Shown here: one piece after another, positions 3,945 through 63,900 of the stretch | Numbering within the stretch: position 1 is the stretch's first letter | Layout: each line of letters starts with the position of its first letter | Assembly: GCA_016748015.1 (NCBI GenBank) | Contig: JAAOMT010000503.1 | Location: forward strand, 645,669 to 709,668 | Direction: 5' to 3' | DNA: 64,000 nucleotides | Source: Geosiphon pyriformis uo1 | Taxonomy: Eukaryota > Fungi > Glomeromycota | Made by a program: the position numbers and the translations under genes | Notes under the pieces: model-generated | Told to the model about the DNA's origin: nothing | Seen by the model: the letters and a program-made list of their open reading frames with translations, nothing else | Databases searched by the model: none

Positions 3945-4381
3945 TTGGTTGTTTTCCTTCTTCCAATGAGTAATTTAGTATAGAAAATTGCTATGTGCAA
4001 TGTCAGAGGATTGAACAATCCTACAAAACAAAACAATGTCATTCATTGGCACAGAGACAAGGACAATTTAGTTTCTATTTTTACAGAATTAAAGTTAAGA
4101 GGGAAAGTTCACTCTTGAATTGTTAATAAATTTGATGGTGTGTGAGTGTTTACCTCTGGTATGAAATCTGGTCATCTAAGTGCTGGTGTTGTGGTCATCA
4201 TGAACTTTTCTTTGGCAAGACATGTGTGCAGGGTTTCAGAAGTGCCTGATCTGCTTCTGTCTATCAAGTTGTTTTTTAAGAATAAACTTTCAGTGTCAAT
4301 TTTAGGGCTTTACACTGGTGCTACTTTGAAGGTTTGGTTTTCTCAGGCTGATAATATCAACTCTCTTATTGCAAAGGCTGT
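3945..4381 (+). mobile_element. LINE 1, start of ORF2 (apurinic-like endonuclease N-terminus), sandwiched between two Gypsy insertions
   Basis: ATG at 3966, MSNLV*KIAMCNVRGLNNP (EN motif NVRG), ...INSLIAKAV; rejoins 12853+ to give IAKAVNKFFFVILSGDFN. Confidence 0.88.
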
Positions 4382-4794
4382 TGTTACCAGTAGAATTTTA
4401 GCTATTAATTAGCATAAAATTCTCCTTATAATTCCTATAATTCATTAGTATATTAATATCATTTCAAATTATCATTTATTATTTAGTCAATTATCACATA
4501 TCACGATTCAATTAAAATAATCTAATTAGTATAACAGAAAGTAGGATGATCAAATTACACAATACCCTGAACTTTGTAACATTCAAAAATTCACAGAAAT
4601 TCGCCGATATTTATAAGAAATTCGCCGAAATTTACAGAAATTCGCCGAAATTATGAATAGTTCACCCAAATTAATCAATAGTTCAGCGAAATAACTTGTA
4701 GTTCATTAAAATGTATCTTTAGTTTGCCGAAATTTGAGCAAAGAGAAAAAGTGCAAGTTCATAGACTAGTACTACAACAAGTTGTATAAAAGAA
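4382..4794 (+). repeat. 5' LTR of element B (U3 part, truncated by gap)
   Basis: Near-identical to 11869-12260, plus one extra ~20-bp repeat unit. Confidence 0.93.
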
Positions 4795-5187
4795 NNNNNN
4801 NNNNNNNNNNNNNNNNNNNNNNNNNNNNNNNNNNNNNNNNNNNNNNNNNNNNNNNNNNNNNNNNNNNNNNNNNNNNNNNNNNNNNNNNNNNNNNNNNNNN
4901 NNNNNNNNNNNNNNNNNNNNNNNNNNNNNNNNNNNNNNNNNNNNNNNNNNNNNNNNNNNNNNNNNNNNNNNNNNNNNNNNNNNNNNNNNNNNNNNNNNNN
5001 NNNNNNNNNNNNNNNNNNNNNNNNNNNNNNNNNNNNNNNNNNNNNNNNNNNNNNNNNNNNNNNNNNNNNNNNNNNNNNNNNNNNNNNNNNNNNNNNNNNN
5101 NNNNNNNNNNNNNNNNNNNNNNNNNNNNNNNNNNNNNNNNNNNNNNNNNNNNNNNNNNNNNNNNNNNNNNNNNNNNNNNNNNNNNNN
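4795..5187. other. Assembly gap (393 N)
   Basis: Run of N. Confidence 0.99.
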
Positions 5188-8100
5188 GAAATGCAAATGG
5201 TTGGATTGCAGCAAGAATGCTCAAAGCAATTCCCTACTTTCTCCAAGGAACAGCAGGAGAATGGTTTGAAAATTTAGAAGAACTATTTGAAAACTGGCAA
5301 GCATTCAAAGATGTTTTTCTACAACAATTCACTGACAACAATACCTCTATCACTCTCAGAAACCGCTTTCACAATATCAAACAAGAAACATCTGAATCTG
5401 TTATGACCTATCTTGGAAGATTTAACAAACTTTTCAGACAAATCCGACAATTGGAAACCAATGACTACTATTCTGATGCTCAAATTCTGAATCAGTTTAT
5501 AGCAGAGTTAAAAGACAAACTGATTAAGAAAGTCTGTCTACATGCTCTAGCAGACTTAGCAACTGCTATTAGACATGCAAAGAGCTATGAGATGACAATG
5601 GAAAAAGCAAATTACACCAAGCTTGTAAACCTTGCAATTAGAGAAACCAGCTCAGCAGCTGAAAAAAAGATAGACCAATTCACAAGGAAAGTTGAAAGCT
5701 ATTTTACAAACCAACAACAACAGCAGCAACAACCACAAAGATATCAACCACTACAACAATGCAACCAAAACAATTTTGGATTACCATTCAACAACCAATC
5801 TAAAAATTATCATTATTGTGGAATTCCAGGACACTGAAAACGAGATTGTAGGAAATTACAAAGAGACCAACAAAACAGGAGTAATCAATATTACTCTTTA
5901 TCACAACAATCCTATTACCAATCTCCACCACCAACTTATTATTCACCAAGACCACAAAATCAAAACTACTATTCACCAGCTCCACAATTAATGCAGCAAC
6001 AATATCAGCAACTTTTACCAATTCAGCCATATCAGACACCACCCACTCAACAATATCAAGTACCAGCAAGAAGATTGGTTCAATATAATCAATTCATACC
6101 CCAAAATCAATTGCAAAGTAACAACAACAGAATCAATCCAAATAACCAGTTGGTTCCCTAAAATTCGGGTCAGCAAAGACCCAATCACTATCACACTCAA
6201 CCCAGTTATCTTACAATACTAGAGGAATTGGATTTTCAACAAACTGTACTTTCTGAAGATGAAGTTGCAGTGCTAAGATCAAACCCTTCCAACCACACCA
6301 TTCCACCAGCTCAAATTGCCCAAAATGCTAATCTGTCAGATATATTTCCATTTGAATTTGAAGCAAATGAATCATCATTTCTGCTTAGTAATGCAGCAGT
6401 TAATGAACAGAAAGCAATTACTGCTATGTACACAGAAGTTACAGTGGAAAAAAAACCCATTCACTTAATCTTAGATAGTAGATCAGCTGGAAGTATCATC
6501 ACTTATCAGCTGATGCAACAACTCAAACGAAACGTAGACAGACCAGCTCAAACAGTTATTGTCACAGCTAATGGTATGAAGAAGACTCCAGTAAGAGAAA
6601 TTGATAATTTCCCTTTTTCAATTGATGAAATTACTATTCCAGTTAAAGTTCTTGTTATGGATACACCCCAATACTAAGCTCTAGTTGGAAATGATTGGCT
6701 TCTTAAGGCCAATGCAAATCTGAACTGGAAAACTCAAGAACTTAAAATCTCATACCAAGGACAATATACCATAGTACCTGCAATCTGTAGTATCTTTAAC
6801 AAATGATCAAAAAAAGCTCCAGTATTTGAATTTGAAGAGGAGAAAGAAATACCACTTACTGAAACCTACATGACTCTTAGATTAACATCCAATTGGGCTA
6901 AAGAAACTGAACAAGAGATTTTTGAAAAATCAAGGGGATGGAAGAAAGTTAGATATTCTACACCAGAACCATGGAAACAACCACCCTATATTTTACTTAA
7001 ATGCAAAGATTGCAACAAAAAACTTTCATCAATAAGAACATGTATTTCTTCAGAAGAGGAATATGAAACTCGTATCTGTTACTTTTACAAAGCATATCAT
7101 AGAGAACGATTTGGATCTCCAAAGAGAAGTGGAAAATGGAACAACACATCTTGTCTTACATGTGGAGAAATACTACCAGAAGAATGCAATTGGATTGATG
7201 TAGCAATAAGAGGAGTATGTGATCAAATCTGTTAATATGCTCTATCAATTTCGGAAAAAGTCAGAAGAAGAACACCATTTGATGCAGCATACAACAGTGC
7301 TCTCAATAAACTTTACCACTACTCTCATGATGCTGAAATGATTTTTGATCTAGCAATGGCATTGATCAATGAAGCCACCCAAGAAGATGTCTGCCAAATG
7401 AAAGAAGCTGAACATATTGAGTATACCATGGAATTAGCTGGATTTGATTATGAAGATAAAGTAGAAACCTACCACCAAATTGCAAGCCATACATATCCGA
7501 CCAAAGAAGCTCAAATTCAATGATTAGAGCAAATAAACATTCAATTGTGTGAAGAATGTGTTATGCCTTGTAATGACCAATGGTGTTTAGAATGTTATGT
7601 TCTTAACATTCCTCTGCCAGATGAGAATGATGAAAATGAAATCGAATTTGGAGTATCTGAACTAGTAGAAGAACTACCAACCACTCCCATCTATCTTCTT
7701 GAAAAACAACCACCTCTACAACTTAAATATTTTGACAACCATGGCCAAGGAATCAGACCAGAAAAAGCACACGAAATTGATGCTGGATATAACCTAAGAT
7801 ACCCAGAAAAAGATACTTTGATTCTCCAACCAAAGTCTTTGACAAAAATTAATCTCAAAATTGCTCTCGAAATTCCACCAGGAGCAATGGTTCAAATTGC
7901 CTCCAGATTATCATTGGCAAGCAAAGGAATCAATATTAGAGGAGGAGTTATAGATGCAGGATACACTGAAGACATTACCATCATGTTACAAAATAAGACA
8001 GACAAACCATTCAAAATTGAACATGCTAAAAAAATTGTTCAAGCAATTTACTTACCCTTAATCAACATTTCGGGTTTACAATTAGTAAACAACAGAGAAC

Positions 8101-9995
8101 AATTGGGAAAAAGTGAAAGAGGAACTCAAGGTTTTGGTTCAACTGGACGATTTACAGTTCCAGTAAACATAGTTCTTAATACACAAAATGAATCTTACCA
8201 GATTCTTTAACTTCCTCAGCCAATTACCAATTCACCTTTTGGAGAACATCACAAAATTTACACTTGCTCAAAACCCACCACTACACAACAAATCTTTGAA
8301 TCCAATGAACAAATCTGTTTGAAGCATGAAATATCAATTCCAAACATTTATATTTTCAAAGGAATGAAAAAATTTTGAGTTACATTCTACAACCCCAATA
8401 ATTACCCTATTGTTTTATTAAACAAATTAAAAATTGGAATTATACACAGCAATATCTTTCAAGATGAAAACCCTCAAATTGTCTCTAATTTTATCGAAAT
8501 TGTAAAGCACACTCTACTCCCAAATCCAAATATCATTACCACTACTGAAAACTACCACTTGTTAGAAAAAAAACTCTCTTGAATCAATATGGGTCCCTTA
8601 GAACCTTAACAACAAAGACAATTGAAACAATTGATAGCTGAATTTGCAGATATATTTGCAAAAGACAACAATGACTTGAGAAAAACAGACATTGTTCAAC
8701 ATCAGATCCATACAGGAGATGCTTTACCAAAACATCAACAAGCTTATCAAGTGCCACCTGCCAGCCACCAATTCATCAGAAAAGAGGTCCAAAGAATGCT
8801 CAATAACGGATTGATTCAACCATCAAGAAGTTCTTGGGCCTCACCAGTAGTTTTAGTTAAAAAAAAAAACGGAAAAATCAGATTCTGTGTTAATTATAGA
8901 CAACTGAATAGTGTTACAATTGGAGATGTCTATCCTCTTTCAAGAATTAATGACATGCTAGATGCTCTAAAAAAAACCAAGTTCTTTTCAACTTTAGACC
9001 TGGAAAGTGGATACTGGCAAGTCGAAATAGACCCAAAAGATAGACCCAAAATAGCATTCACCACTCAAGAAGAAAATTATGAGTTTAATGTTATGCCTTT
9101 TGAACTCTGCAATGCACCAGCAACATTTCAGCGACTCATGGATGTTGTCTATGAAGGGCTTTTGTGGCAATCAGTAGTTGTTTATCTTGATGATACTGAT
9201 GTATACTTACCAAGCTTTGAAGCCCATCTCATTCACCTGCGAGAAGTTTTTCAATGATTACGGAAAGCAGGACTAAAGTTAAATATTAAGAAATGTCACT
9301 TTGGAAAAACAAGCTTGATCTTTTTTGGACACATAGTTAGTAAAGATGGAATCAAACCAAATCCAGGAACAATCAGTGCTGTCAAAAACTTTCAAATCCC
9401 CAGAAATACTACAGAACTATGAGGATTTGTGGGATTAGCCTCTTACTATCAAAAATTTATAAAAAAATTCTCAGAAATTGCCAAACCACTCAATTATCTT
9501 ACCAACAAAAATGTACTATACAAATGGACTAAAAAACAACAAAAAGCTTTTGAAATTCTCAAAACAAAATTGACAACAGCCCCAGTTCTTGCTTACCCAG
9601 ACTTTAACAAACAATTCCAATTAGCCACTGATGTCTCACACATAGCATTTGGTGCCATCTTATCACAATTGGATGAAAATGTCCAAGAACAAGTTATTGC
9701 TTATGCCAGCAGAACACTCAAGCCAACAGAACTCAAATATGGCTCAACTGAATTAGAAGCTGCTGCAGTTATTTGGGCTTTTAAACATTTTCAACAATAT
9801 CTGAAGAATGAAAAAGAATTTGACATAATAATGGACAACATTGGCCTCAAATGGTTCAATAAAAAGAAAACTGAACAAAGTGCCAAACAGTCTTGATGGA
9901 ATGACTTCTTAGCAGACTACAAATATATTGTACACTACAAACCAAGAAAACTACATACCAATGTTGATAGCCTCTCAAGAATGAGACAAGATTAA
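5188..9995 (+). pseudogene. Fused gag-PR-Cys-rich-dUTPase-RT-RNaseH ORF of element B (single frame, nonsense-disrupted)
   Basis: All fragments share one frame; Zn knuckle YHYCGIPGH*KRDC (~5810-5850), PR LILDS(R)SAGS (~6465), RT YLDD (~9183), RNaseH LATDVS..ELEAAA..MDN; ends NVDSLSRMRQD* (TAA 9993-9995). Confidence 0.92.
7752..8147 (+). pseudogene. dUTPase domain within pol of element B
   Basis: All five trimeric dUTPase motifs: AGY(N/D)L, ASR(L/S)SLA, GGVIDAGYT, KI(V/A)QAI, RGTQGFGSTG. Confidence 0.92.
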
Positions 9996-10052
9996 TACCA
10001 ACAACAATTCCACCACAACTTACCAATTTACCAACAAAATAACCAAACAAGA

Positions 10053-11420
10053 ATGGATTCCAAAAACTACAGCAATCTTAAAAATTATTTGGAGACTCTT
10101 ACCATGCCAGAAAACTGGTCTCCAAGTAAAAAACACTGCTTACAACACCAATCAAAACAATATTTCATACACCAGAACAAAATCTATTATAAAAATCACA
10201 GAAAACCAAACCAGCCACTCAGATTAGTATAAGAGAATGAAAAAAAAACAATTTTATACAACATGCACACAGATCCGTCTTCAGTACACTTGGGAAAAGA
10301 GGGAACAATTCAAAGAACTCTTGAACATTATTTTTGGCCTCACATGCAAAAAGACATTCGACAATATGTAGAATCTTGTAATAATTGTCAAAGAATAGGA
10401 GGAACTCGCTCCACAGAACCTTTAAATCCAATCAAAGTTGGACAACTTTTTGACAGAGTTGGAATTGATTTAGTCGAACCATTACTTATCACAACCCAAG
10501 GAAATCATTATATTGCAGTTGCAGTGGATTATCTTACCAAATAGCCTGAAGCTAGAGCCATCCAAAGAGCAGATGCAAAATCAGTAGCAAATTTCATCTA
10601 TAAAGACATTATCTGTAGACATAGATGCTCAATTGAACTCTTATCTGATCAAGGAACACATTTTGTAAACAACTTGATACAAGAAATTTGTGAATGGTTC
10701 AATGTCAAAAGACCTCTATTATCACTTTATCACCCTCAAACAAATGAACTTGTAGAACGTTTTAACAGAACATTGTGTAAATCTCTAGCCAAAGTCTCAA
10801 CAGACTTTGAGCAGGAATGGGATATCTTTATTTCATCAGTGTTACTAGTATACAGAACACTAAAACAAGATACTACAAAACACATACCATTTGATCTTAC
10901 TTATGGAAGGACAGCAACATTACCAATTAATTTCACAGTAGAAACATATCCAGTACAACCAATCAATAAAGAAAACTTTCAAGAGACACTCCAAAGAAGA
11001 GCCTACACTCTTCTTAGTACACTGGAAGAAAAAAGAAAAATAGCAGCAACTCATATTGAACATTCCCAAGCTCAACAAAAAGAAAGACATGACAACAAAT
11101 TACCACCTATTACCAATGAATTTAAAGTTGGAAATAAAGTTCTCTTACACAGAACTAAGGCTGAAAAACAATGGAGTGAGAAATTTGAAAACAAATGGGA
11201 TGGACCATTTTATATTCACGAAATTCTAAGCAATGGATCATATAAGTTAAGACTTGATGACAAAATATTAGCAAAAGTTGCACATGGAGACAGATTAAAA
11301 CACTATCATTCCAAAAACAATCCTGAATCATTAATTCCACAAATTGGTACACATTCCCCTTTAATTAATCCTGAAGATATTCCCCGAAATTTAGAACCAA
11401 TAATTATAATAGAACAATAA
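10053..11420 (+). pseudogene. Stand-alone integrase ORF of element B
   Basis: ATG MDSKNY at 10053; HHCC (H..H..CNNC), GIDL, SDQG, N(G)LVERFN, GPF motif (WDGPFYI); no chromodomain. Confidence 0.9.
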
Positions 11421-11424
11421 CCAA

Positions 11425-11634
11425 NNNNNNNNNNNNNNNNNNNNNNNNNNNNNNNNNNNNNNNNNNNNNNNNNNNNNNNNNNNNNNNNNNNNNNNNNNNN
11501 NNNNNNNNNNNNNNNNNNNNNNNNNNNNNNNNNNNNNNNNNNNNNNNNNNNNNNNNNNNNNNNNNNNNNNNNNNNNNNNNNNNNNNNNNNNNNNNNNNNN
11601 NNNNNNNNNNNNNNNNNNNNNNNNNNNNNNNNNN
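11425..11634. other. Assembly gap (210 N)
   Basis: Run of N. Confidence 0.99.
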
Positions 11635-11888
11635 ACACTCACTACAAACTTAAAGCAGCTCTTAGACTCTATGACTTGTTTAATACTTGTGAAAATGTTC
11701 TACAAAATCCAATACTGCAACCAATGAAAGTCCAATACATTGGCAAACTCACAGAACTGAAATTTCAACAATTTTCAGACCAGATTACTTCAATTATTTT
11801 AGATCACTATCTCAATATTACAGATAGTGCTTGGACTTCGATGGAGCTCAGTCTTGAGGAGAAAATTATGTTACCAGTAGAATTTTAG
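11635..11888 (+). CDS. 3' part of ORF3 (unknown protein) of element B, reading through the PPT into the 3' LTR
   Basis: HYKLKAALRLYDLF..QYIGKLTELKFQQFSDQI..MELSLEE matches ORF3 of element D. Confidence 0.8.
11856..11865 (+). promoter_or_regulatory. Polypurine tract of element B
   Basis: GAGGAGAAAA 3 nt upstream of the LTR TG; element D has GAGGAGGAGG. Confidence 0.8.
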
Positions 11889-12848
11889 CTATTAATTAGC
11901 ATGAAATTACCCTTACAATTCCTATAATTCATTAGTATATTAATATTATTTCAAATTATCATTTATTATTTAATCAATTATCACATATCATGATTCAATT
12001 AAAATAATCTAATTAGTATAACAGAAAGTAGGATAATCAAATTACACAATACCCTGAACTTTGTAACATTCAAAAATTCACAGAAATTCGCCGAAATTTA
12101 CAGAAATTTGCCGAAATTATGAATAGTTCACCCAAATTAATCAATAGTTCAGCGAAATAACTTATAGTTCATCAAAATGTATCTTTAGTTCATCGAAATT
12201 TGAGCAAAGAGAAAAAGTGCAAGTTCATAGATTAGTACTACAACAAGTTGTATAAAAGAAGAGCTTTTTTCTTCTGGAAAATGTATCTTACTTTAGATTT
12301 ATCTCTTAAAACCATTCCTATACACACAAAAAAAAAAATATCAAATAATTTAAAAAACCAAATTCTTTAATTATTGTACTTGGAAAAACCCCCAAAAACC
12401 CAACTAACATTTCGAAATTGATTAGCTACCAATTTCAGTAAACTGTTAGTGACTCCAGGCCTGAATAAAAAACGTTTTTCTTGACAAAATTCTATTTCTT
12501 TTACATTTCTTTTATTTTTCTTTTATTTTCTTATTACAATCATTAGGGTAGCCTACAGACAAGATTCCTGTAGAAGAGTTGACTTTCACAGCAAAGTAAC
12601 TATACATTTTAGTGAGCTTTCAGACGAGCAATTCTTGGGAAAGAGTTGATGTTTATTACAACGTAACTACATAAAGTAACTGGCAAAGAATTGGCCATTC
12701 CACTTATAAGTCCAGCAGTTCAAATTATAGGAGATAATTTGAAGATAAATTCAGTTATTCGAGGTTCAACCACATCCAGAAAACGTGAATTCACAACAAA
12801 CAGGCATCAATAACATTTAAGAAAAGAGACCAAAAACCTCTGATAACA
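11869..12848 (+). repeat. 3' LTR of element B (980 bp)
   Basis: TGTTACCAG...CTGATAACA with short terminal inverted repeats; TATAAAA box near 12251. Confidence 0.95.
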
Positions 12849-15800
12849 CTGTCAATAAATTTTTTTTTGTTATTCTCAGTGGTGATTTTAATAAAGATGG
12901 CTCTCTTAAGTGTACAAGCTTCAAAAAATGCCTTGATTTAAGGCTAGTTAATTTTTTGGTTAGCAGTCTAATTGTAAAGAAGCCTACTTGGGCAAATTTT
13001 AGGGGCATTATTAAAACAATTAATTATGTGCTTATTTCTCTAAATTTGATTAATGCAATAGTGCCTTATAATGTTTTAGAAGTTAACAAGTATTTTAACA
13101 CAGATTACCAATTTGTTTCTGTGTCTGTAAGTTTGGGTAAACTTTTGGATATGCAGTTAAACTCTCTTTGCAAGCAAGCAAATAGGGATTAATAGAAGTT
13201 TGGGTTCAAGGGTGCCAATGAAACTAAATGGAACAATTTTAAGAGTGTCATGTTGGCCAATGCAGCAATGTTCTCAGATGAATTTGCTGTCTCTGCAAGA
13301 TTCTCAGATTTGGACATAATGTAAGATATTGTTTACAAGATAATAGTTATCTTAGCTAATAAGATGTTCAAGAAGAAATGGTTTAAGGATTTTGATAATG
13401 TCTTTACCAAGGAATCTTCAAAATTTTACAAATTAGAGCTTTTGGTTTCTAGAATTTTTAAGGCTTTACATGAGAAAAGTGGTATAAAGTTTAACTCTTT
13501 TATGAGATGCTAGATTTCTTTGGACAATGTTAAGGCTTTGGTCATTTAGAACATAGTAAACTCTAATGCTGGCTATGATTATATCCATTCTGCTTTCTTT
13601 AGTGCTAGAAGGTTTTATTATACTGCCAAACTTGCTAAATCTCTAAGGATTAAGAAGGTGAACATTAGGTCTGCTATTGATAAGAAAATAGAAAGCTTTG
13701 AGATGAATAAGGATCATATAATCAAGAGTGTGCAGGAGTGTTCTTTTCACAAAGTGGTACTTAATCATCTAGTGGTTGATAATAAGCTGATTCTAAAACC
13801 TGTTCTGGTTAAGTCTAAAATAGATGTGATCATAGAGGGGTGGACTAAAAAGCATAAAATAGCAGATGATATCTTTGGTAACTGGCATTACCAATATCAA
13901 TCTTTGGAGTATGTTTTTGATAAGACTTTTTTTGGTGTTATGTGTTCAATTGAATTTGATGAATTTTTTGAAGTGGTTTCTAATCTGCCTAATGACAAAG
14001 CTGCTGGTCTATCAGATATATTAAATGAGCTTTGGAAGCATTGTGATAAGGCAATATTGGATATGCTTTTGGCGCTTTTGAATTCTTGTTTGTCTAGTAA
14101 ATCAGTGCCTGGCTTTTGGAGAGAGGCTTGGATCTCAATAATTTCCAAACCATATGAATGGGAGGGTGTCTTAATGAATACCTGTTCTATTGCTTTAATT
14201 AAAACAGTTTGTAAGATTTTTTCTAAGATTCTCTCTAACAGAATTTCTTTGGCATACAGCACTTTCAATATTTTTTGTGGGGACAATTTTTTGGTTTTAA
14301 AAGATATAATGACTCAGTTTCCTATTTTTGCAAGACATGGAGAAAACATACAATTCAGTTGGCTAAAAACATCTTGAGAAGAGTTTGGTTAGGATCAAAA
14401 TGTGCAGCAAATTTATTCGATTTTTTGGTAGTATTTATAAGAATCACACCAACTGAATTATGACAGATTTTGGTTTGACAGATAATTATTGTATGCACAA
14501 TGATTTGGACCAAGAAAAAATATTCTTTCTCTTCCTGTGGTGCATATTTTATGATCCTCTATTGTGTGAAGTCAAGCATCAGAAAAGTGTGTGTGAGTAC
14601 AGATTGAATTCTTATTTTATTTCCAGAAGTGGTCGCACTGAATCTCAGACTGGACTTTTTTCTTTTTTTACTATTGGCACTTTTGTTGATAATACAATTT
14701 GGGTTGGTAGTAGTCAAAGTGCTACTCAACATATTCTCAATGTTGCTGGTGAATTTTTTCAAATCAATAACATTTTAATCAATAATGACAAAATGGTAGC
14801 CATTCCCATCAATAGCAGAGTTAACAATTCTTCTCTTTTTATTAGTGGTTCACCAATTTCCATTGCCAAAAAGGGTGAATCTCATCAGTATCTGGGTATT
14901 TATCTTTCAACTAAAGACCTTTTGAAGCCTAGTTTGGCTAAGACACATTCAGATGTTTGTTTTTTTACCAATCTAGTCTTGAGAAAAACTGTCTCAGATA
15001 AACAGTTCTTGTATTTGGTTTTAGTAGTTTTTTATCCTATAGTCAGCTATAGGATGCAGTTCAGCTTTGTTTCTGTTGGTATGTATAACAAGTGGAATGC
15101 TCTGATTCATAAGAGCTTGAAGCTTAAATCCAGTCTACTATTTGATTTCTCTGGTGATACAATTCACCACTCTTCTTTTTATGATTTGAAATCTTTTTTA
15201 CAAGTTCAATCTAAAAGTAAGATTGCTTTTCTTGTTAGTTTTATGAACTTTAGTGGAATTATGGGTCACTTGTTTTCTTACAGATTTCATAACTTGTAAG
15301 TTCTATGTTGGCACCCTGTTTATTCATTAAGTTCTTTTGTACACATTTGTGTTAGTGCTTCTAATAATTTTCTGACAGACATAGTTCATATTCTTCTTAA
15401 TTGCAATTTGTTCCTGAGTGGCTTTTTGGCCAGTTTCTTTTGGTTTCATGGTGGAATTCTCATGTTTGCTGTTCTGAATAAGTCAAGTTTTCTTAAGTTT
15501 CTCTTTTTTCTCCATTGGTATGACATAGTTTTTGTGAATCAACTTTGTAATAATCATGATGCTGTCTTTGATTGATGTACTTTTAGGTAATAGAAGAAAC
15601 TGGACTCCTGTGGCCCTTTTCTTAAGTGGTTCAAAATTTTTACAACATTTTTCAATAGTGTAACTTCTTTTTTTGCTCATCTTTTGGCTTTGAGTGGAGT
15701 TGGTTCTTTGAACATTCTTAACTTTGGTGATTTTGTGTCTGTTTGTGACAATTTCTTTTGGGTTGGTTCTGGTAGTTTATCTGTATATACAAATGGGTTT

Positions 15801-53200: not shown

Positions 53201-56200
53201 AAAGATAACAATAAAAAAAAAAGAAAGAAAAGGAAGAAGATCCAACACCAATTACCACTTATAGTCCATATGCTTACTCTTCACTACTGCCATCTAACTA
53301 TTGCTGATTAAAATTAATATGTGTAGATTGTGGCAAGAAATTGTTGTTAATGGATGCATGCTGTAATGATGATGATGAATACTCCACAGCAACAAAGTTC
53401 TATTGTTACCATGTATTATAGAATGGTTTGGATGCCCAAAAAGACAAAAAAAATGGGATAACAAATCTTGTCTTGCATGTGGAACTATTTTGCCTGACAA
53501 AGAAATGTGGAATGACATTCCTGGATGAGAAAGAACATGTGATGAGACATGCCAGTATATCATCCTAATAAATAACTGGATACATAAAGAAACCCCAATT
53601 GACAATGCCTGGAAAAAAGCATTGCAATGATTGGAAGGATATCCTCACAACAAACATGAAATCTGAAAAATAACAAGTGTAAAAGCAAAAGGTGCTACTA
53701 CCAGCAAGTTATTAGAAATTAAAAATAACTCACTCTCACTGTCTGAACCTGAATATGTCCTCATCTTCAATGTTTTCAGTAATATTGAAGATGATCTGGA
53801 AGAATTCCACGAATATTATCAATGATTAGCATCTACTAGAAAAGAACAAAAGCAGTGTTTAGAGCAATTGAATACTCGATTATGTCAACATTGCTTAATT
53901 TTCTGTGACTTTCAATATTGTAATGAGTGTGACCTTATTTACAATCCACCAATACACATGATCTATATGATCCTGAAAGAAGAAGAATCAATCAGCAGCT
54001 GTGTATTAGAATTGGAATCAATTTTCAATTCTGATTTAAACTCCAACAATGATGATGACAAAAACAATAGTCCCAGCTCTGCTCAATATGGCAATGGAAA
54101 ATATAGCAATTCAAACTCTGATTCAAACCCTGAAACATACATCACACTCCCTGATTTCACCAAAGAACAGAAACTTAAATAGTTTAACAATAATAATGAA
54201 GATATTATGCCAGAATGCACACATGATACCGATGCAAGGTTTGATCTGAGATATTTAGAAAAAAATCTCATCAAATTAGAACCTCATTTGTGCATCTGCA
54301 TTAATCTCAAAATAGCACTGGAAATTCCAGCAACAACAATGGTTTAGTTAGCATCTAAAAATAGCTTAGCCAAAAAAGGAATCAACATCAGAGGAGGAAT
54401 AATTGATGCAGGATATGTAGGAAATATCATTGTAATGCTATAAAATGACTCAGAAAAGGCATATATTATAGATCTAAATAAAAAGATAGCACAGGCAATA
54501 TTCCTGCCTCTGATTAAAATAGCTCACTTAGTATCAGTGGAAAACAGAGAAGAATTAGGGATCACAGCTAGAGAGATACAGAGATTTGGATCCACAGGTA
54601 GAATAGATATACCAGTCAATATGGCAGAGAAAAAAATTATTGACAAGGAAAAAATTATCTTCACCCATCAACCAATTTTCATTCTATCATATGACCAGTA
54701 CATGGTAGTCATAGAAAAAAAAGTAAAAGATCAGATACAGATTTTTGAAGTGGAAGCAACACTTTGTGAATTAGGAAAGATCAGATTAGTCAATCTACAC
54801 ATACCAGCCAAAAACCACAGCCACATCAAAATTCCTATTTACAACAATACAGAAGACATTATTAAGATACCAAAAGGAACCACTATTGGATACTTGACCA
54901 CAGAAATTAAAGACCAATTCCAGACTTTCTACAACTGTGTGAATATGTGGATATCATATTTCAAATCATATACAGATGAAAAAAATGTTATTTGCTTCAA
55001 TTAGAACAATTGAAACAAATGAACATAGGACACTTAGATTCATTACAATATATGCAGCTCAAAATGTTACTCAACAATTTCAATGACATCTTTGCCAGTG
55101 AAAACAAATTTGGCAGAACTAACATCATCCAATATCAAATCAAGACTGGAAATACAATGCCAATTAAACAGAGAGCATACAGAGTACCACCAGCCAGCCA
55201 TGAGATCATTTGTCAAGAAATTAACTGAATGCTTAACAATGGGTTAATTCAACTATCAATGAGCCCATGGTCATTATCAGTAGTACTAGTTTATAAGAAA
55301 AATGGAAAAATTCACTTTTGTGTGGATTACTAAAAACTGAATAGAGTAATCAAAGGAAATAGTTACCCAACATCAAAGATTCAAGAACTGTTTGATGCTT
55401 TTGGAAGAAAAAAATGGTTCTCAACTTTAGACTTGGACAGTAGTTATTGGCAAGTAGCCATAAAACCAGAAGATAAGGAAAAAACAGCTTTCACAACATG
55501 AAAAGAAAATTTTGAGTTCAAAGTCATGCCATTTGGATTGATAAATGCTCTAGCAACATTCCAACAGCTTATGGAAATTGTCTATACTGGATTACTGTGG
55601 AAATCAGTAGTCATATACTTAGATGACACCAATGTGTTTTCAAAAACATTTAATGATCATCTGCATTATCTTCAACAAGTGTTTAAAAGACTAAGAAGAG
55701 CCAGACTAAAGCTAAATGCAATCAAATGTTTCTTTGGAAAAACTGAACTCAAGTTTTTGGGACATATGGTAAGCAAAAACGGAATTAAAACAGATCCAGA
55801 CAAGATTGAGATCATCAAGAACTTTTCAGTACCAAATAATTTCACAGAATTGAGAGCATTTTTGGAATTTGCTGGATACTACTGCCACTTTATCAAAGAC
55901 TTTTCCAAAATAGCTTAACCACTACACCAACTCCAAACAAAGAACACCAAGTATAAATGAACAAAAATTCAGCAAGAAGCTTTTGATACATTAAGAAAAA
56001 AGCTTATTCAAGCTCCAATACTGATCTATTTAGATCATAACAAGCCATTCATAATCACAACTAATACATCTGGTCAAGCATTAGAAGCAGTATTATCTCA
56101 GAAAAGACCAGATGGATGAGAACATCCAGTAGTTTACACCAGTAGAAGCTTAAGTCCAGCAGAAAAAAACTATAGAACACTAGCATTAGAACACTTAGCA

Positions 56201-56419
56201 ATCTATTGGGCAGTTATGAAATGGAAAAAATACTTGAGTCAAAAGTTTGATGTATACACAGATTATAAAGGATTGATTTCAATCCAGAAACAAGAATTTG
56301 CAGATAATTGCCATGTCAGATGGAAAATAAAACTGTTACCATTTAATTATACAGTGCATTACAAAAAAAAAAAAGAAAACGGAAATATCGACAGTCTGTT
56401 GTAAATGAGACAAATCTAA
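50237..56419 (+). pseudogene. Degenerate gag-PR-Cys-rich-dUTPase-RT-RNaseH polyprotein of C2
   Basis: Gag (KFTG..QVWLND..NGWDD), CYYCGKQRHLKIDC knuckle, PR, dUTPase (~54200-54600; GGIIDAGYVG, FGSTG), RT YLDD, RH; ends NIDSLL*MRQI* (TAA 56417-56419). Confidence 0.88.
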
Positions 56420-56450
56420 AAAACATTTCAACCCAAAAATATAACAAAAG

Positions 56451-57721
56451 ATAAATATACAAAAATACCAACAACTACAACATTATATAAATACCCAATT
56501 GTTTAAAGAGAAATTATCTCAAAAGAAACAAAGGAACATAAAACAACAATCAAAATATTTTATCAACCATCAAAATATACTTTATTGGAAGAACAGAAAA
56601 AATACAGATCAATCAACCAGAGTAATCACAGAATTAGAGAAAGAGACAATATTATTTAATATACACTCAGATTCAACAGCAGGACATTTTTATAAAAAAA
56701 CAACCATAGAAAAAATTAAAAAAAAATATTATTAATTATCAATGTATCCAGACATCATCCAATATGTTCAAAATTGTGATGCTTGTTAGAAAAGAGGAGA
56801 AACAAGACCCAATGAACCATTAAAACCAATCAAAATGGGACAACTATCCGATCATATTGAGATTGACTTAATTGGATCATTAACAATCACCAATAGAGGC
56901 AACAGATATATTGCAGTAGCCATGAACTATCTCACTAAATGGCCAGAAGCAAAAGCCATTCAAAGAGCAGATGCAGAATCTATTGCCAAATTTGTTCATC
57001 AAGATTTAATCTGTCAACATGGATGTCCAAAAAAACTATTATCAGATCAAAGAACTCACTTTGTAAATAGAACATTGACAGAATTAAGTCAAAGATTTGG
57101 GATAAAAAGACTATTATTATCATCATACCATCTATAAACAAATGGACTAGTTGAAAGGTTTAACAGAACATTGTGTAAAGCCATTGCCAAAATCAGCCAA
57201 GAAAACCAGGACAAATAGGATTTGATTATACCATCAGTATTATTTGCTTATTAGACAATGAAGCAAGACACTACACAAGCAACACCATTTGAATTAGTAT
57301 ATAGTAGAACAGCAACATTATTAGTTGAGATAAAAGTCAAAACTTATCCAACAGAACCAATAACAGAAGAAAATTTTCAAAAAACATTGTTAAGAAAAAC
57401 ATATGACTTAATGGAAACATTAGAAAACACATGGCAAAAAGCAGCTGATAATATCCAAAAGTCACAAGAGAAACAAAAAAAGACATAATAACCAACTACC
57501 AGATAAACCAGTTGAATTCAAGATTGGAAACAAAGTATTTTTAGATTGTACCAAAGCAAAAAAGCAATAGAATAGAAAATTTGACCCCAAATGGGACAGA
57601 CCATTTCACATAGAAGAAATTCTTAGAAATGAAGCTTACAAATTAAGGTTGAACAACAAAATCTTAACCAAAGCAGCACATAGTGATTAACTAAAACCAT
57701 ATCACTATATAGTATCACTAT
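56451..57721 (+). pseudogene. Stand-alone integrase ORF of C2 (start probably ATG mutated to ATA)
   Basis: HSDSTAGHF..CDAC, IDL, SDQ, NGLVERFN, WD(R)PFHI. Confidence 0.85.
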
Positions 57722-58707
57722 TGTTACCGGAGGTTTTTGGTCTCTTTTCTTGAATGTTGTTGATGCCTGTTTGCTGTGAATTTACGTTTTCTGGATGTGG
57801 TTGAACCTCCAGTAACTGAATTTATCCTCAAATTATCTCTTATAATTTGAACTGCTGGACTTATAAGTAAAATGGCCAATTCTATGCCAGTTACTTTGTA
57901 TAGTTACATTGTAGTAAATGTCAACTCTTTTCTAAGAATTGCTTGTCTGGAAGCTCACTAAAATGTGTAGTTACTTTGCTGTGAAAGTCAACTCTTCTAC
58001 AGAAATCTCATCTGTAGACTACCCTAATGATTGTAATAAGAAAAGAAAAGAAAAATAAAAGAAATGTAAAAGAAAAAGTAAAACTGATGATTTATGGAAG
58101 TCGTTTCGGATCCAGGCCTGGAAGTGCTTTAACAGTCTACTGAAATTGATAGCTAATCAATTTCAAACTGTTAGTAAGAATTAATTAATTCCAAGAGAAA
58201 TAATTAAGAATTTGGTTTTTCGAATTTATTTAATATTTATTTTGTTTTTGTGTGTAAAGGCTGATTCTAATTATTAAATCTGAAGTAAGATACATTTCCT
58301 CAAAAAAAGAAGCTCTTCTTTTATACAACTTGTTGTAACACTATTCTATAAACTTGAACTTTGCTATTTTTTATAATTTCACTGAACTAAAGATACATTT
58401 CGGTGAACTACAAGTTATTTCTGTGAACTATTAGATATTTCGGCAAACTATCAATTATTTCGGCGAATTTCTTACAAATTTCGGCAACTTTTTGAATGTT
58501 ACATAGTTCAGGGTATTGCATGATTGATCATCACAATTAGGTTACATTTGTGTTATGTACAAATTGGGTTATTAATTAAATGATAATTTTGGATATTTTG
58601 CTAATGTAATAAGTAATAATTTGGAAATGATAATATATGCTAATTAATGATAAGATTTATAAGAGTAATTTCATGCTAAACAATATCTCTAATTTTGTCT
58701 GGTAATA
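57722..58707 (-). repeat. 3' LTR of D (986 bp; initial TG mutated to TA)
   Basis: Minus strand TATTACCAG...CCGGTAACA; homologous to the A and B LTRs. Confidence 0.92.
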
Positions 58708-59395
58708 TAACCTCCTCCTCAAGACTGAGCTCCATCAAAGTCCAAGTACTGTCTGTAATTTTCAGATAATAATCCAAAATTATTGAAGAAATTTGGTCTG
58801 AAAATTGTTGAAATTTCAGTTCTGTAAGCTTTCCAATGTATTGAATCTTCAAAGGCTGTAAAATTGGGTCTTGTAGGACGTTTTTATAGGTGTAGAATAG
58901 GTCATAAAGTCTAAGAACAGCTCTTAGTTTATAATGACTGTTTGTAGACCCAGCTGTTGTCTTGAATTCATTGTAAAGTTGTTTCCGAATAGCTTCTTTT
59001 GCAAGGTTTGCTGTTGTAAGCTCTAGTTTTTGCTTATGAAGTGTTTTTTCAATATAAAAATATCTATATATTGGAGGGTATTTGCCATTTTCTTCATTAA
59101 GATACAGTTGAAGTTTTTGTTGAATAATAGCATTTGGTGAAATACTAATAGGGGCGAGCAATAAGTTTTCTCATAAAACAAGCTTCAAAAGTTCTGGTAA
59201 ATAAATTCCAGAATAACTTCTTGTGTTCTTCTTATATGGATGATATTTTTGTGCATTTGGAGCTAAATTTGCAACTACTTCTGTTTAGGTATAATTAATG
59301 TGGTTTCGAGTAACAGTAATGGATAATTTGAGTATTGTTTTTAAAGCTAACATTAGTTTTTGGGATAATTGTTGAATGTTTTGAGGAATAGACAT
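58676..59395 (-). pseudogene. ORF3 of element D, ~239 codons, unknown protein (two nonsense codons)
   Basis: ATG MSIPQNIQQ at 59395 is in frame with ORF 58676-59161; the TAA and TGA stops are explicable by single C->T changes. Confidence 0.8.
58711..58720 (-). promoter_or_regulatory. Polypurine tract of D
   Basis: GAGGAGGAGG 3 nt before the LTR. Confidence 0.85.
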
Positions 59396-59517: not shown

Positions 59518-60900
59518 TTAAGTATTCAAGTTAGGAGGTTGTTCAATGATAACTATTGGTTCTAAATTTTGGAGAATGTCTTTGGAATTGATTAAAAAAG
59601 AATGTGTATCAATTTGTGGAATTAATGGTTCAGGGTTGTTTCTGGAATTATAGTATTTCAAATGATCTCCATGTGCAACTTTTGCTAGGATTTTGTTATC
59701 AAGTCTTAGCTTGTATGATCCGTTGCCTAAAACTTCATGGATAAAAAATGGTCCATCCCATTTATTCTCAAATTTTCTACTTCATTGTTTTTCAGCTTTA
59801 GTTCTGTGTAAAAGAACTTTGTTTCTAATTTTAAATTCATTGGTGACTGGAGGCAATTTGTCATCATGCCATTCTTTTTGTTGAGCTTGGGAGTGTTCAA
59901 TATGGGTGGCTGCTATTCATTGTTTTCTTTCCAATGTGCTAAGCAGAGTGTAGGCTTTTCGCTGAAGCATTTTCTGGAAATTGTTTTCATCAATTGGTTG
60001 TGCTGGGTATGTTTCCACTGTGAAACTAATTGGTAATGTTGCTGTCCTTCCATAAGTTAAATCAAATGGTGTGTGTTTTGTGATATCTTGTTTTAGTGTT
60101 CTATATGCTAGTAACACTGATGGAATAAAGAGATCCCATTCTTGCTCAAAATTGGTTGAAACTTTGGCTAATAATTCACACAATGTTCTGTTGAAACATT
60201 CTACAAATCCATTGGTTTGTGGATGGTAGAACAAAAATAATGGTCTCTTGACATTAAATTGTCCACAAAATTCCTGGATTAAATTGTTCACAAAATGTGT
60301 TCCTTGATCAGATAAAAGTTCTATTGGGCATCCATGTCTACAAATGATGTCTTTGTAGATGAAGTTTGCTACTGATTTTGCATCTGCTCATTGAATGGCT
60401 CTGGCTTTAGGCCATTTGGTGAAATAGTCTATAGCTACTGCAATATAACGGTTTTCTTGGTTTGTGATAGGTAGTGGTTTGACTAAATTGATACCAACTT
60501 AGTCAAAAGGCTGTCCAACTTTGATTGGGTTTAATGGTTCAGTAGGGTGTGTTCCTCCTCTTCTTTGACAACTATCACAAGATTTGACATATTCGTGAAT
60601 GTCTTTTCTTATTTGAGGCCAAAAGTAGTATTCTAGTGTTCTTTGGGTGGTGCTGTCTTTTCCGAAGTGTGCTAATGAAGAATCTGAGTGCATGTTGTAT
60701 AATATAGTTTTTTTTTTCTGTTTTTGTATTAATCTGAGTGGTTTGTCTGGGTTTTTGAAATTTCGCTGATAAATAATGTTGTTGTGTAGAAAATATTGTT
60801 TGGCTTGTTGTAGTTAATGTTTTTCATCTGGAGACCAATCTGTTGGAATTGTTAATGTTTCCAAATATTGTTTGAGATTGTTGTAGTTTTCCAAATTCAT
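59518..60900 (-). pseudogene. Stand-alone integrase ORF of D
   Basis: ATG MNLENY at 60900; HSDSSLAHFG..CDSC, SDQG, TNGFVE, WDGPF. Confidence 0.88.
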
Positions 60901-60947
60901 TGTTTGTTGGCTGTTTTGGTTGGTTAAGTTGAATGTTGGTTTTTTTT

Positions 60948-63900
60948 CTAATCTTGTCTTATTCTGGAGAGACAGTCAACATTGGTGTGGAGTTTTTCTG
61001 GTTTATGATGTACTATGTATCAATAGTTTGCTAGAAATTCTGTCCATTAGATTTGTTTTGTATTTAGCTGAGTATTTTTGTTCTGAAGCCATTTAAGTTC
61101 AATATTATCAGTAATAATATCAAATTCCTTTGGCCAGAGATAAAAGTTGAAATGATGTAGGGCCCAAATTACAGCTGCTGTTTCCAATTCAGTGGCAGGA
61201 TAATTTTTTTCAGCTGGTTTTAATGTTCTGCTAGCATAGGTGATTACTCGCTCATTTCTATTGTCATCCAATTGTGATAGGATAGCACCAAAGGCAGTAT
61301 AAGAGGCATCTGTTGCTAATCGGAATCAGTTGCTGAAATCTGGGTAGGCAAGAATTAGAGCTGTCATTAGTTTTTCTTTGAGGATTTCAAATACATTTTG
61401 GCATTCAGCAGTTCATTCATATTTGACGTTTTTGGTGGTAAGCTAGTTGAGAGGTTTTGCAATTTCTGAGAATTCTTTGATAAACTTCTGATAGTAAGAG
61501 GCTAACCCTATGAATCCTCTTAATTCTGTAGTGTTTCGAGGAGTTTTGAAGTTTTTGACAGTGCTGATTTTTTTAGGGTCCAGTTTGATTCCATTTTTAC
61601 TAACGATATGACCAAGGAAGGCCAAGCTTGTTTTTTCAAAGTAGCATTTTTCAATGTTGAGTTTTAGTCCTGCTTTTTGTAATCGTTGAAAAACTTCTCG
61701 CAGGTGTTTTAAGTGTAATTTGAACAATAGAGAATAAACATCAGTATTGTCAAGATAAATGACTACTGACTTCTAAAAGAGTCCTTGGTACACAACATCC
61801 ATTAATCTCTAAAATGTTGCTGGTGCATTACATAATCCGAAAGGCATTACATTGAACTTGTAATTTCCGCCTTGGGTGGTGAATGCTGTTTTGGGACAAT
61901 CTTTGGGATCCATAGCAACTTGTCAGTAACCACTTTCTAAATCTAGTGTTGAAAAGTATTTGGATTTTCCAAGGGCATCTAATATGTTATCAATTCGGAG
62001 AAGGGGATAGGCATCTCCAATTGTAATACTGTTGAGTTGTCAGTAGTCAACACAAAATTGTATCTTTCCATTTTTTTTTTAACTAACACTACAGATGAAG
62101 TCCAAGAACTCATGGAGGGTTGGATGAGCCCGTTGTTAAGCATTTGTTGTACTTATTCTTGGATGAATTGGTGGCTTTCTGAAGCAACTCGATATGCTTG
62201 TTGTCTTCTTGGTTTGGCATCTCCTGTATAAATTTGGTGTTGAACCAAATTGGTTTTTCCTAAGTCATTGTTGTTTTCAGTAAAAATATTGGTAAATTCT
62301 GCAATTAGCTCTTTGAGCTGGCTCTGTTGTTGTGGTTCAAGTTGTTCTATGTTGATTCAAGATAGTTTTTTTTATGACAACATGGTAGTTTTCAGAGCTA
62401 GGGTTTGGGTTGATTTTTGGTAGTGAATGTCCAATAATTTCCGAAAAATTGGGAACTGTCTGAAGTAGTTCTTGTTGAAAGATGTTACTGTGAATGACTC
62501 CAATTTTTAAGTTATTTAATAGAACTATGGGGTAATTGTTGGGATTGTAAAAAGTAACTTGGACTTTCTTTGTTTTTTCTGAAATATAAATGTTTGGGAT
62601 CAAAATATTATGTTCCAAGCAAACTTGTTCATTGGACTCAAAAATTTGTTGTGTGGTTGTTGGCTTTGGGCAGGTGTAGATGTTCTTCAAAAGATAAGAT
62701 GGTAATTGGTTGTGGAAGTCTGAGAATCTGGTGGGATTTGTTCTGTGTGTTAAGAGCTATATTAACTAGAACTGTGAATTGTCCAGTTGAACCAAAACTT
62801 TGGGTTTTTCTATTGCTTTTTCCTAATTGTTCTCTTTGATTGACTAGTTGCAAACCCAAAATGTTGATTAGGGATAGGTAAATAGCTTGGGCAATTTTTT
62901 CAGCATAGTCGATCTTGAATGGTTTGTCAGTTTCATTTTGAAGCATCACTGTAATGTCTCCAGTATATCCAGCATCAATTATTCCTCCTCTGACATTGAT
63001 TCCTTTGCTTGCCAGAGAGAACTGGGAGGCAATTTGAACCATTGCTCCTAGTGGGATTTTGAGTGCAATTTTGAGGTTGATTTTTGTGAGAGATTTGAGT
63101 TTGAGAACAAGAGTATCCTTGTCTGGATATCTTAGATCGTATCCAGCATCAATTTTATGTGCTTTTTCAGGTTTTATTCCTTGTCCGTTGTTGTTGAAGT
63201 ATTTGAATTGTAAGGCAGGTTGACTTTCAATAAGATAGATAGGTGTTGTTTCAATTTCTTCTGTTGCTTCAGGTTCTCCAAATTCAATTTCATTTTCATT
63301 GTTTTTACTGGGCAGAAGAACGCTAAGAGCATAGCATTAAAGACACCATTGCTCATCGCAGGGCATTATGCATTCTTCACACAATTTAACGTTCATTTGC
63401 TCTAGCCGTTGAGCTTGAGCTTCTTTGGTTGGGTAAGTGTGACTGGCAATTTGGTGATATATTTCTACTTCATCTTCGTAGTTGTATCTAGCAATTTCAA
63501 AGGTGTATGCAATGTATTCTGATTCTTTTATTTGACAAACATTTTCTTGAGTGGCTCCGTTGATTAAAGCCATTGCTAGGTCAAAAATTATTTCGGCATC
63601 ATGAGGATAATGGTACAGTTTGTTGAGAACACTGTTGTATGCTGCATCAAATTTTGACTTTTTCTGAGATTGATAAAGCATATTGGCAGGTTTGATCACA
63701 GACTCTTCCTCTTATTGCTACATTAATCCAATTGCATTTTTCTGGTAGCATATTTCCACAAGTCAAACAAGGAGTGTTGTCCCATTTTCCACTTCTTTTT
63801 ATTAGATGGCCCCATCGTTTTTTGTGGCAAGCCTTGCAGTAGTAACAAGTATGATTTTCATATTTTTCTTCAGGTGAAATACAGGCTCCCATTGACAATA

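Follow-up and report, generated by a model that had tools for sequence, protein, structure and literature searches.

Integrase is encoded apart from pol, in its own open reading frame, in a fungal lineage of Ty3/Gypsy elements

A 64,000-nt stretch of the Geosiphon pyriformis uo1 genome (contig JAAOMT010000503.1, positions 645,669–709,668; hereafter the window) carries three retrotransposon copies, B, C2 and D, that are dead copies of a fungal Ty3/Gypsy lineage in which pol ends after RNase H and integrase follows in an open reading frame (ORF) of its own. This layout is real and lineage-wide, a statement that we make with great confidence. An initial annotation of the window had proposed that integrase is separate by design and not through decay, readthrough or a fixed frameshift, and three observations bear this out: the stop is fixed, it recurs in 45 of 45 related loci, and most integrases compared share a common initiating methionine.

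In copy B, gag, protease, dUTPase, reverse transcriptase (RT) and RNase H occupy a single reading frame (5190..9992, forward strand) that closes, after the RNase H end DSLSRMRQD, with a TAA at 9993..9995. A 57-nt spacer without ATG (9996..10052) leads to the integrase ORF (10053..11420), which has its own ATG at 10053 and encodes an HHCC zinc finger, the core and a GPF motif. C2, also on the forward strand, has a pol TAA (56417..56419), preceded by an extra stop immediately upstream of MRQI, a 31-nt spacer (56420..56450) and a frameshifted, decayed integrase remnant (56451..57700) with ATA at the homologous Met position. On the reverse strand, D has a pol TAG (60948..60950), a 47-nt spacer (60901..60947) and an integrase ORF of 460 codons (59521..60900), with its own ATG at 60900 and 5 internal stops. 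The stops, spacers and starts annotated at the outset were all exactly placed; the spacers are G-poor and A/C-rich as described, with one G each, and put the three copies in three different frames (phases 0, 2 and 1 for B, D and C2, respectively). None of the spacers forms a stable fold (minimum free energy −1.3, 0 and 0 kcal/mol for B, D and C2). Because all three copies are heavily decayed, the window alone is only suggestive. Decay had to be excluded in particular because the gag-pol frame of B is interrupted by 13 other in-frame stops in 1601 codons, and its integrase frame has three more (10230, 10542 and 11418).

First, we used Logan contigs of DNA run X1, which is possibly the source of the assembly and therefore not independent of it, to reach other genomic copies and align them to B. 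The X1 contigs over 9960–10070 (n = 408) vary at 17 places at a frequency of at least 2%, none of which lies in the stop at 9993–9995; T>C variants do occur at 9996 and 10027. By contrast, two internal stops of B carry C in much of the X1 depth (57% at 9894, 99% at 10230), and being mostly sense in other copies they represent private decay, which the junction stop does not. The integrase start codon has G>A in 38% of X1 depth (13–62% at other G positions), which explains the ATA of C2 and upholds its suggested derivation from ATG. Runs X2 and X3 gave no contigs that aligned to B. Eight joints in X1, one of them ending at 10052, were not counted, as they have 80% likeness, short sides and unknown sequence between and show no recurrence.

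Second, the same layout is found in relatives. A search with the D integrase, stops read as X, returned 912 proteins of similar length, from which we took the best 120 (360–453 amino acids). Together with B and D these make 122 integrases, 97 of which align from an identical first residue; in 15 the start is a second Met that lies 17 residues further in, and M comes first in 120. At the DNA level, 80 metagenome loci were fetched by a search that required neither start nor stop, and in all 45 that have an upstream RT–RNase H match a stop precedes integrase (TAA in 26, TAG in 13 and TGA in 6). The spacers of these loci run from −20 to +446 nt, with phases 0, 1 and 2 in 11, 17 and 17 cases (the start of L061 being ambiguous, and the stop of L070 being taken at the end of a broken extension), and the integrase ORF is at least 395 amino acids long in 37 of the 45. 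Relatives share the layout, in mixed phases, and the stop stays fixed (variation below 2% in X1) while spacer length varies. Among 21 other loci with at least 100 nt upstream, the RNase H end or its extension is present in 16, with no match in 5. Several contigs hold whole units of gag, pol, integrase and a further ORF.

Third, an independent search started from RT agrees: integrase is lacking in 100 of its best 120 RT–RNase H matches, and of the 96 that extend to the end of RNase H, 84 terminate no more than 27 residues beyond it. The C>T and G>A changes that riddle the window copies are what one would expect if the stops were mutational decay of a normal fused pol. The probability of that explanation is negligible, as it is refuted by the fixed stop, the 45 of 45 intact relatives that stop and the RT-side search.

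Close fused RNase H–integrase forms did appear in a search of longer proteins, as gene models only. Six in-clade models (P0123, P0124, P0309, P0340, P0369 and P0370) join the two domains, as they would if the spacer lay within an intron whose splicing fuses RNase H to integrase in the manner of an Ogre-like pol intron. Three of the six are near-identical Rhizophagus clarus models with one junction; overall, the models use four different junctions, each of which removes both the start of integrase and the conserved C-terminal NxDxLSR of RNase H. Stop-skipping of that kind appears typical of gene predictors, and the models are probably prediction artefacts. A pol intron would also leave the conserved Met, and the −3 purine and ATG avoidance described below, without purpose, and overlapping stop/start junctions leave nothing to splice. 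No conserved splice donor, branch point and acceptor were found around the spacer, and we regard this explanation as highly improbable.

The elements are otherwise recognizable members of Ty3/Gypsy. Copy B has long terminal repeats (LTRs) with TG..CA ends and a CTGT target duplication, and Pfam matches in B and in intact loci give the order gag, protease, RT, RNase H, integrase. The usual trait of an integrase inside the pol ORF is missing, as all 45 loci stop first, and no chromodomain (PF00385), the mark of chromoviruses, was found among the best 120 homologues or the window ORFs. In trees (FastTree and quick IQ-TREE) whose outgroups are unnamed or plant/animal Gypsy-type matches, without a named reference lineage, the RT–RNase H of the split elements groups among Gypsy-type polyproteins. 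A single group with support 99 unites the split elements (28 loci, the 3 window copies and 2 gene models). With a larger row set, the group comprises 131 rows at support 91, and L054 and L069 fall outside, unplaced. The quick IQ-TREE tree groups 18 of 19 at 98, with L069 outside, and other outgroups give 19 of 19 at 92, with the continuous protein P0448 included. The integrases of split elements group at 93. A single origin of the split layout is likely. A point against the overall reading is that the continuous P0448 groups with L069 in one RT tree, L069 lying outside the clade in two others.

Reinitiation, internal entry and a spliced subgenomic RNA had been put forward as routes to a separate integrase, and this remains the right list. 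Tentatively, we favour termination–reinitiation: ribosomes would finish pol and then restart on the same polycistronic RNA at the integrase AUG, the scanning subunits coming from pol termination. The AUG itself is probably picked by scanning, to which ATG-poor spacers and a purine at −3 both point. Spacers of 10–170 nt (29 spacers, from the 42 loci left after dropping L039, L040 and L061) contain 5 ATGs, whereas shuffling of bases predicts 28.4 and dinucleotide shuffling 18.9 (never below 9 in 300 shuffles). The −3 position is a purine in 63 of 71 loci, versus 42–48 of 71 at −10, −7, −4, −2 and −1. Overlapping or abutting stops and starts are the typical pattern of termination–reinitiation, and they occur at both junctions of integrase, which is why we prefer this route: at 8 of 45 pol–integrase junctions the distance is −20 to +2 nt, with UAAUG in one case, and 8 of 30 junctions between integrase and the ORF that follows it likewise overlap or abut. 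The lack of structure in the window spacers also fits this route. The RNase H ends before overlap-type junctions are ATG-rich (NAC-G:NAT-G 5:34), and scanning from a distant 5′ end would need to pass those ATGs.

Several points weigh against scanning or reinitiation. GTA is as depleted from the spacers as ATG (6 versus 17.4 in the dinucleotide control), so the depletion is not ATG-specific, and G at +4 is confounded by Asp/Glu at residue 2. Six long spacers (190–446 nt; L010, L015, L032, L035, L040 and L065) carry 2–10 upstream ATGs, and simple reinitiation fails for them unless small ORFs relay. ATG avoidance extends into RNase H, which fits an internal 5′ end equally well: in nine related loci, the last 60 nt of RNase H contain NAC-G 10 times and NAT-G never, compared with 29:182 in their integrase ORFs (the nine share ancestry, but other synonymous sites in that stretch vary). 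Integrase reinitiated after a pol that itself lies behind a frameshift or leaky stop would presumably be scarce. Finally, the presence of a structured motif in one subclade suggests that more than plain scanning is involved.

Some of these points would be met by a 3′-coterminal subgenomic mRNA, made by leader splicing or from an internal promoter located within RNase H or beyond it, that gives integrase a scanned 5′ end of its own. We consider this a possible, though less probable, route. Spacers poor in ATG and G resemble 5′ untranslated regions; the avoidance of ATG over ~60 nt of RNase H in one subclade would follow; long spacers with upstream ATGs are most easily handled by a 5′ end near the AUG; and integrase dose would be uncoupled from a low level of pol. 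At overlap junctions, however, the 5′ end would have to fall less than ~30 nt from the AUG, within coding sequence. As for splicing, the splice-like words highlighted in the initial annotation (CTTAAC..CAG in D, TAAC..AAG in B and C2) are indeed present, but no enrichment accompanies them in intact relatives: 22 of 67 loci have YTRAY followed by (H)AG within the final 80 nt, whereas shuffling predicts 25.8, and B and C2 fail the pattern. The nearest upstream AG lies anywhere from 0 to 109 nt from the ATG, and scans of the relatives’ loci for U2 branch point and acceptor and for U12 donor and branch point gave no consistent signal. Splicing to a fixed acceptor is not supported by these sequences.

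The motif in question is 40 nt long and ends 0–30 nt before the integrase AUG in 23 loci, plus 2 weak ones (L055:4464-4500, L030:5193-5229, L024:3352-3388 and 20 more loci). Its parts are a short stem at the base, a purine-rich bulge of 12 nt and a hairpin of 8 pairs that contains a bulged A. Of its 13 base pairs, 8 show changes on both sides across the 20 distinct sequences compared, and pairing is kept in 96.9% of cells, a value that 0 of 500 shuffles reach, although relatedness of the sequences can inflate this test; slid controls are far lower too. A scan of 10 loci, 6 of which bear the motif, with Rfam covariance models gave 0 matches up to an E-value of 5, and the covarying predicted structure is new in this sense. 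Most motif-bearing loci fall in one integrase subclade, four members of which lack the motif, and L049 is the single outlier; a search found no copy before the post-integrase ORF or elsewhere in motif-bearing loci. Viral contigs gave no exact match to the motif pattern and three weak integrase-core matches.

The motif may be a ribosome entry or restart element. Its covariation and its place directly before the AUG are what suggest internal ribosome entry at the spacer, through this structure in one subclade and through an unstructured A/C- or U-rich tract in the window branch. Such a mechanism seems unlikely: the motif is missing from the window (best E-value 1.1), where spacers are A/C-rich and unstructured, and from the greater part of the lineage; individual copies do not fold better than their shuffled versions; and the element could equally be protein-binding, autoregulatory or nuclease-blocking. 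The motif-bearing subclade also has a 220–345-amino-acid acidic, Cys/His-rich extension after RNase H (L030, L051, L055, L068, L078, L024 and L036); Pfam scans of this extension in L030, L055 and L068 gave no match.

A conserved ORF of 130–220 amino acids, here termed ORF-X, follows integrase (54 loci examined; 24 of 30 in one family). It is a separate ORF with a putative product, as in L001:4516-4929, L013:4878-5501 and L055:5890-6333. Pfam gave no match in 11 of 12 copies; an unrelated ORF in L014 matched a helix–turn–helix domain weakly. In the window, a remnant after the B integrase (11635..11888, forward strand) runs into the 3′ LTR, its 5′ part removed by an N gap at 11425-11634, and its end resembles, by eye, the post-integrase ORF of L003. 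Another separate post-integrase ORF lies at 58676-59170 on the reverse strand.

Other features of the relatives concern the expression of pol. In all 7 loci examined (L010:2498, L015:870, L016:2882, L047:902, L052:3290, L072:780 and L077:1955), gag-protease is separated from RT by an in-frame TGA followed by CTA; we take this to be the known leaky-stop context, located here after protease and not after gag. In other loci (L001:327-342, L013, L014 and L008) the last residues of gag are ...SLN or ...HLN, and its end overlaps with a pol frame that is open, the arrangement expected of a −1 frameshift. Window copy B differs from this L001 type in that gag and pol share one frame. Within several long spacers (L015:2490-2854, L040:1665-2110, L032 and L035) lie a small basic ORF and a short conserved stretch, which is duplicated in L040.

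The window itself consists of AT-rich fungal DNA. Its host genes encode tuberin, a CoA-ligase and an MBOAT protein, and its nested, decayed Gypsy copies have gag, protease, dUTPase, RT, RNase H and integrase domains. B and D are 77.5% identical across 4.5 kb, and C is ~70% identical in RT and integrase segments. Named homologues come from Glomeromycotina (Rhizophagus, Cetraspora and Geosiphon pyriformis), including a G. pyriformis gene model with 81% identity across part of integrase. The partial 5′ LTR of B (4382..4794, forward strand) starts with TG directly after CTGT; an N gap at 4795-5187 takes in the region of its primer-binding site. The 3′ LTR (11869..12848, forward strand) ends in CA and is followed by CTGT, giving a 4-bp target duplication (4378-4381 and 12849-12852) that a single C>T change separates from the CCGT of Ginger1. 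A dUTPase lies between protease and RT in all three copies (7524-8210, 54444-55004 and, on the reverse strand, 62638-63336), and a Nudix domain takes its place in other lineage members (P0320, P0328 and P0364). CpG is depleted over the whole window (observed/expected 0.54), and the element copies are heavy in C>T/G>A change.

Known termination–reinitiation systems include LINE-1 ORF2, SART1 (UAAUG), calicivirus and influenza B, and the fungal victoriviruses. They resemble the split elements in having a downstream ORF behind a long ORF with a short spacer or a stop/start overlap, but none is known to be an LTR element that splits pol. Foamy virus pol comes from a spliced mRNA, so that there too the enzyme is made without Gag fusion and needs its own packaging route; in that case, however, the whole of Pol, integrase included, is one protein, and here no acceptor signal was found.

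In the accessible part of the fungal LTR literature, surveys place integrase inside the pol ORF, as in Ty3 and Tf1 (PMC3248453). The split elements match these in TG..CA ends, a short target duplication, an HHCC, DDE and GPY/F-type integrase and Gypsy gene order, and differ in three respects: pol stops at the end of RNase H, integrase starts at an AUG of its own, and a further separate ORF comes behind it. Tat elements, according to the sections available, carry an additional RNase H in a separate ORF (PMC10508981 and PMC13468544). They likewise place a pol-type enzyme domain outside pol and raise the question of how it acts there, but theirs is an extra captured domain, whereas here the only integrase of the element is concerned. 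A survey of integrase arrangements lists, in the portion available, five states, none of them a separate sense ORF after RNase H (PMC2774666). In REM1 and PVCV, as described there, integrase has also moved from its usual position, being truncated and reversed in REM1 and upstream of gag in PVCV; here it is complete, in sense orientation and downstream. Two papers on mycorrhizal-fungus transposons do not address the layout in their accessible text (PMC11952901 and bioRxiv 2021.03.30.436303). The layout is not described in the literature searched, subscription journals, supplements and Repbase/Dfam entries being outside reach, and this variant of Ty3/Gypsy gene expression is apparently unpublished.

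Ginger1 transposases are closely similar to some Gypsy integrases, the route between them being called unclear in the available part of the source (PMC2836005). They share with the split elements a stand-alone Gypsy-like integrase of ~400 amino acids with an N-terminal YPYY-type segment, and differ in having terminal inverted repeats and no RT, whereas here direct LTRs and an upstream RT–RNase H were found. Two proteins that combine integrase with Ulp1 match the lineage profile from position 1, one of them with Met at residue 1, and fall in a polytomy beside the split clade in the integrase tree. A broader scenario would combine a polycistronic gag-pol, integrase and ORF-X message, the 40-nt motif as entry or restart element in one subclade, an integrase that acts unpackaged or in trans and an intermediate state on the way to Ginger1; taken as a whole, it is rather improbable.

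In LTR elements and retroviruses, placing integrase within Pol sets its dose and brings it into the particle. The split lineage, which is diverse and has many intact members, must solve both problems in another way; free integrase may reach the complementary DNA by binding Gag or RT, or may meet it outside the particle. The short natural spacers make eukaryotic reinitiation after a long ORF, or a compact entry element, directly testable. For annotation, genes called ‘integrase’ or ‘DDE transposase’ that stand alone in Rhizophagus probably belong to LTR elements of this kind, and ORF-based filters would score intact split copies as broken; GBC53574.1 is one such stand-alone integrase model from R. 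irregularis. Finally, a separate integrase offers a simple route for the Gypsy-to-Ginger1 transition, the step left unclear in the part of that account available (PMC2836005).
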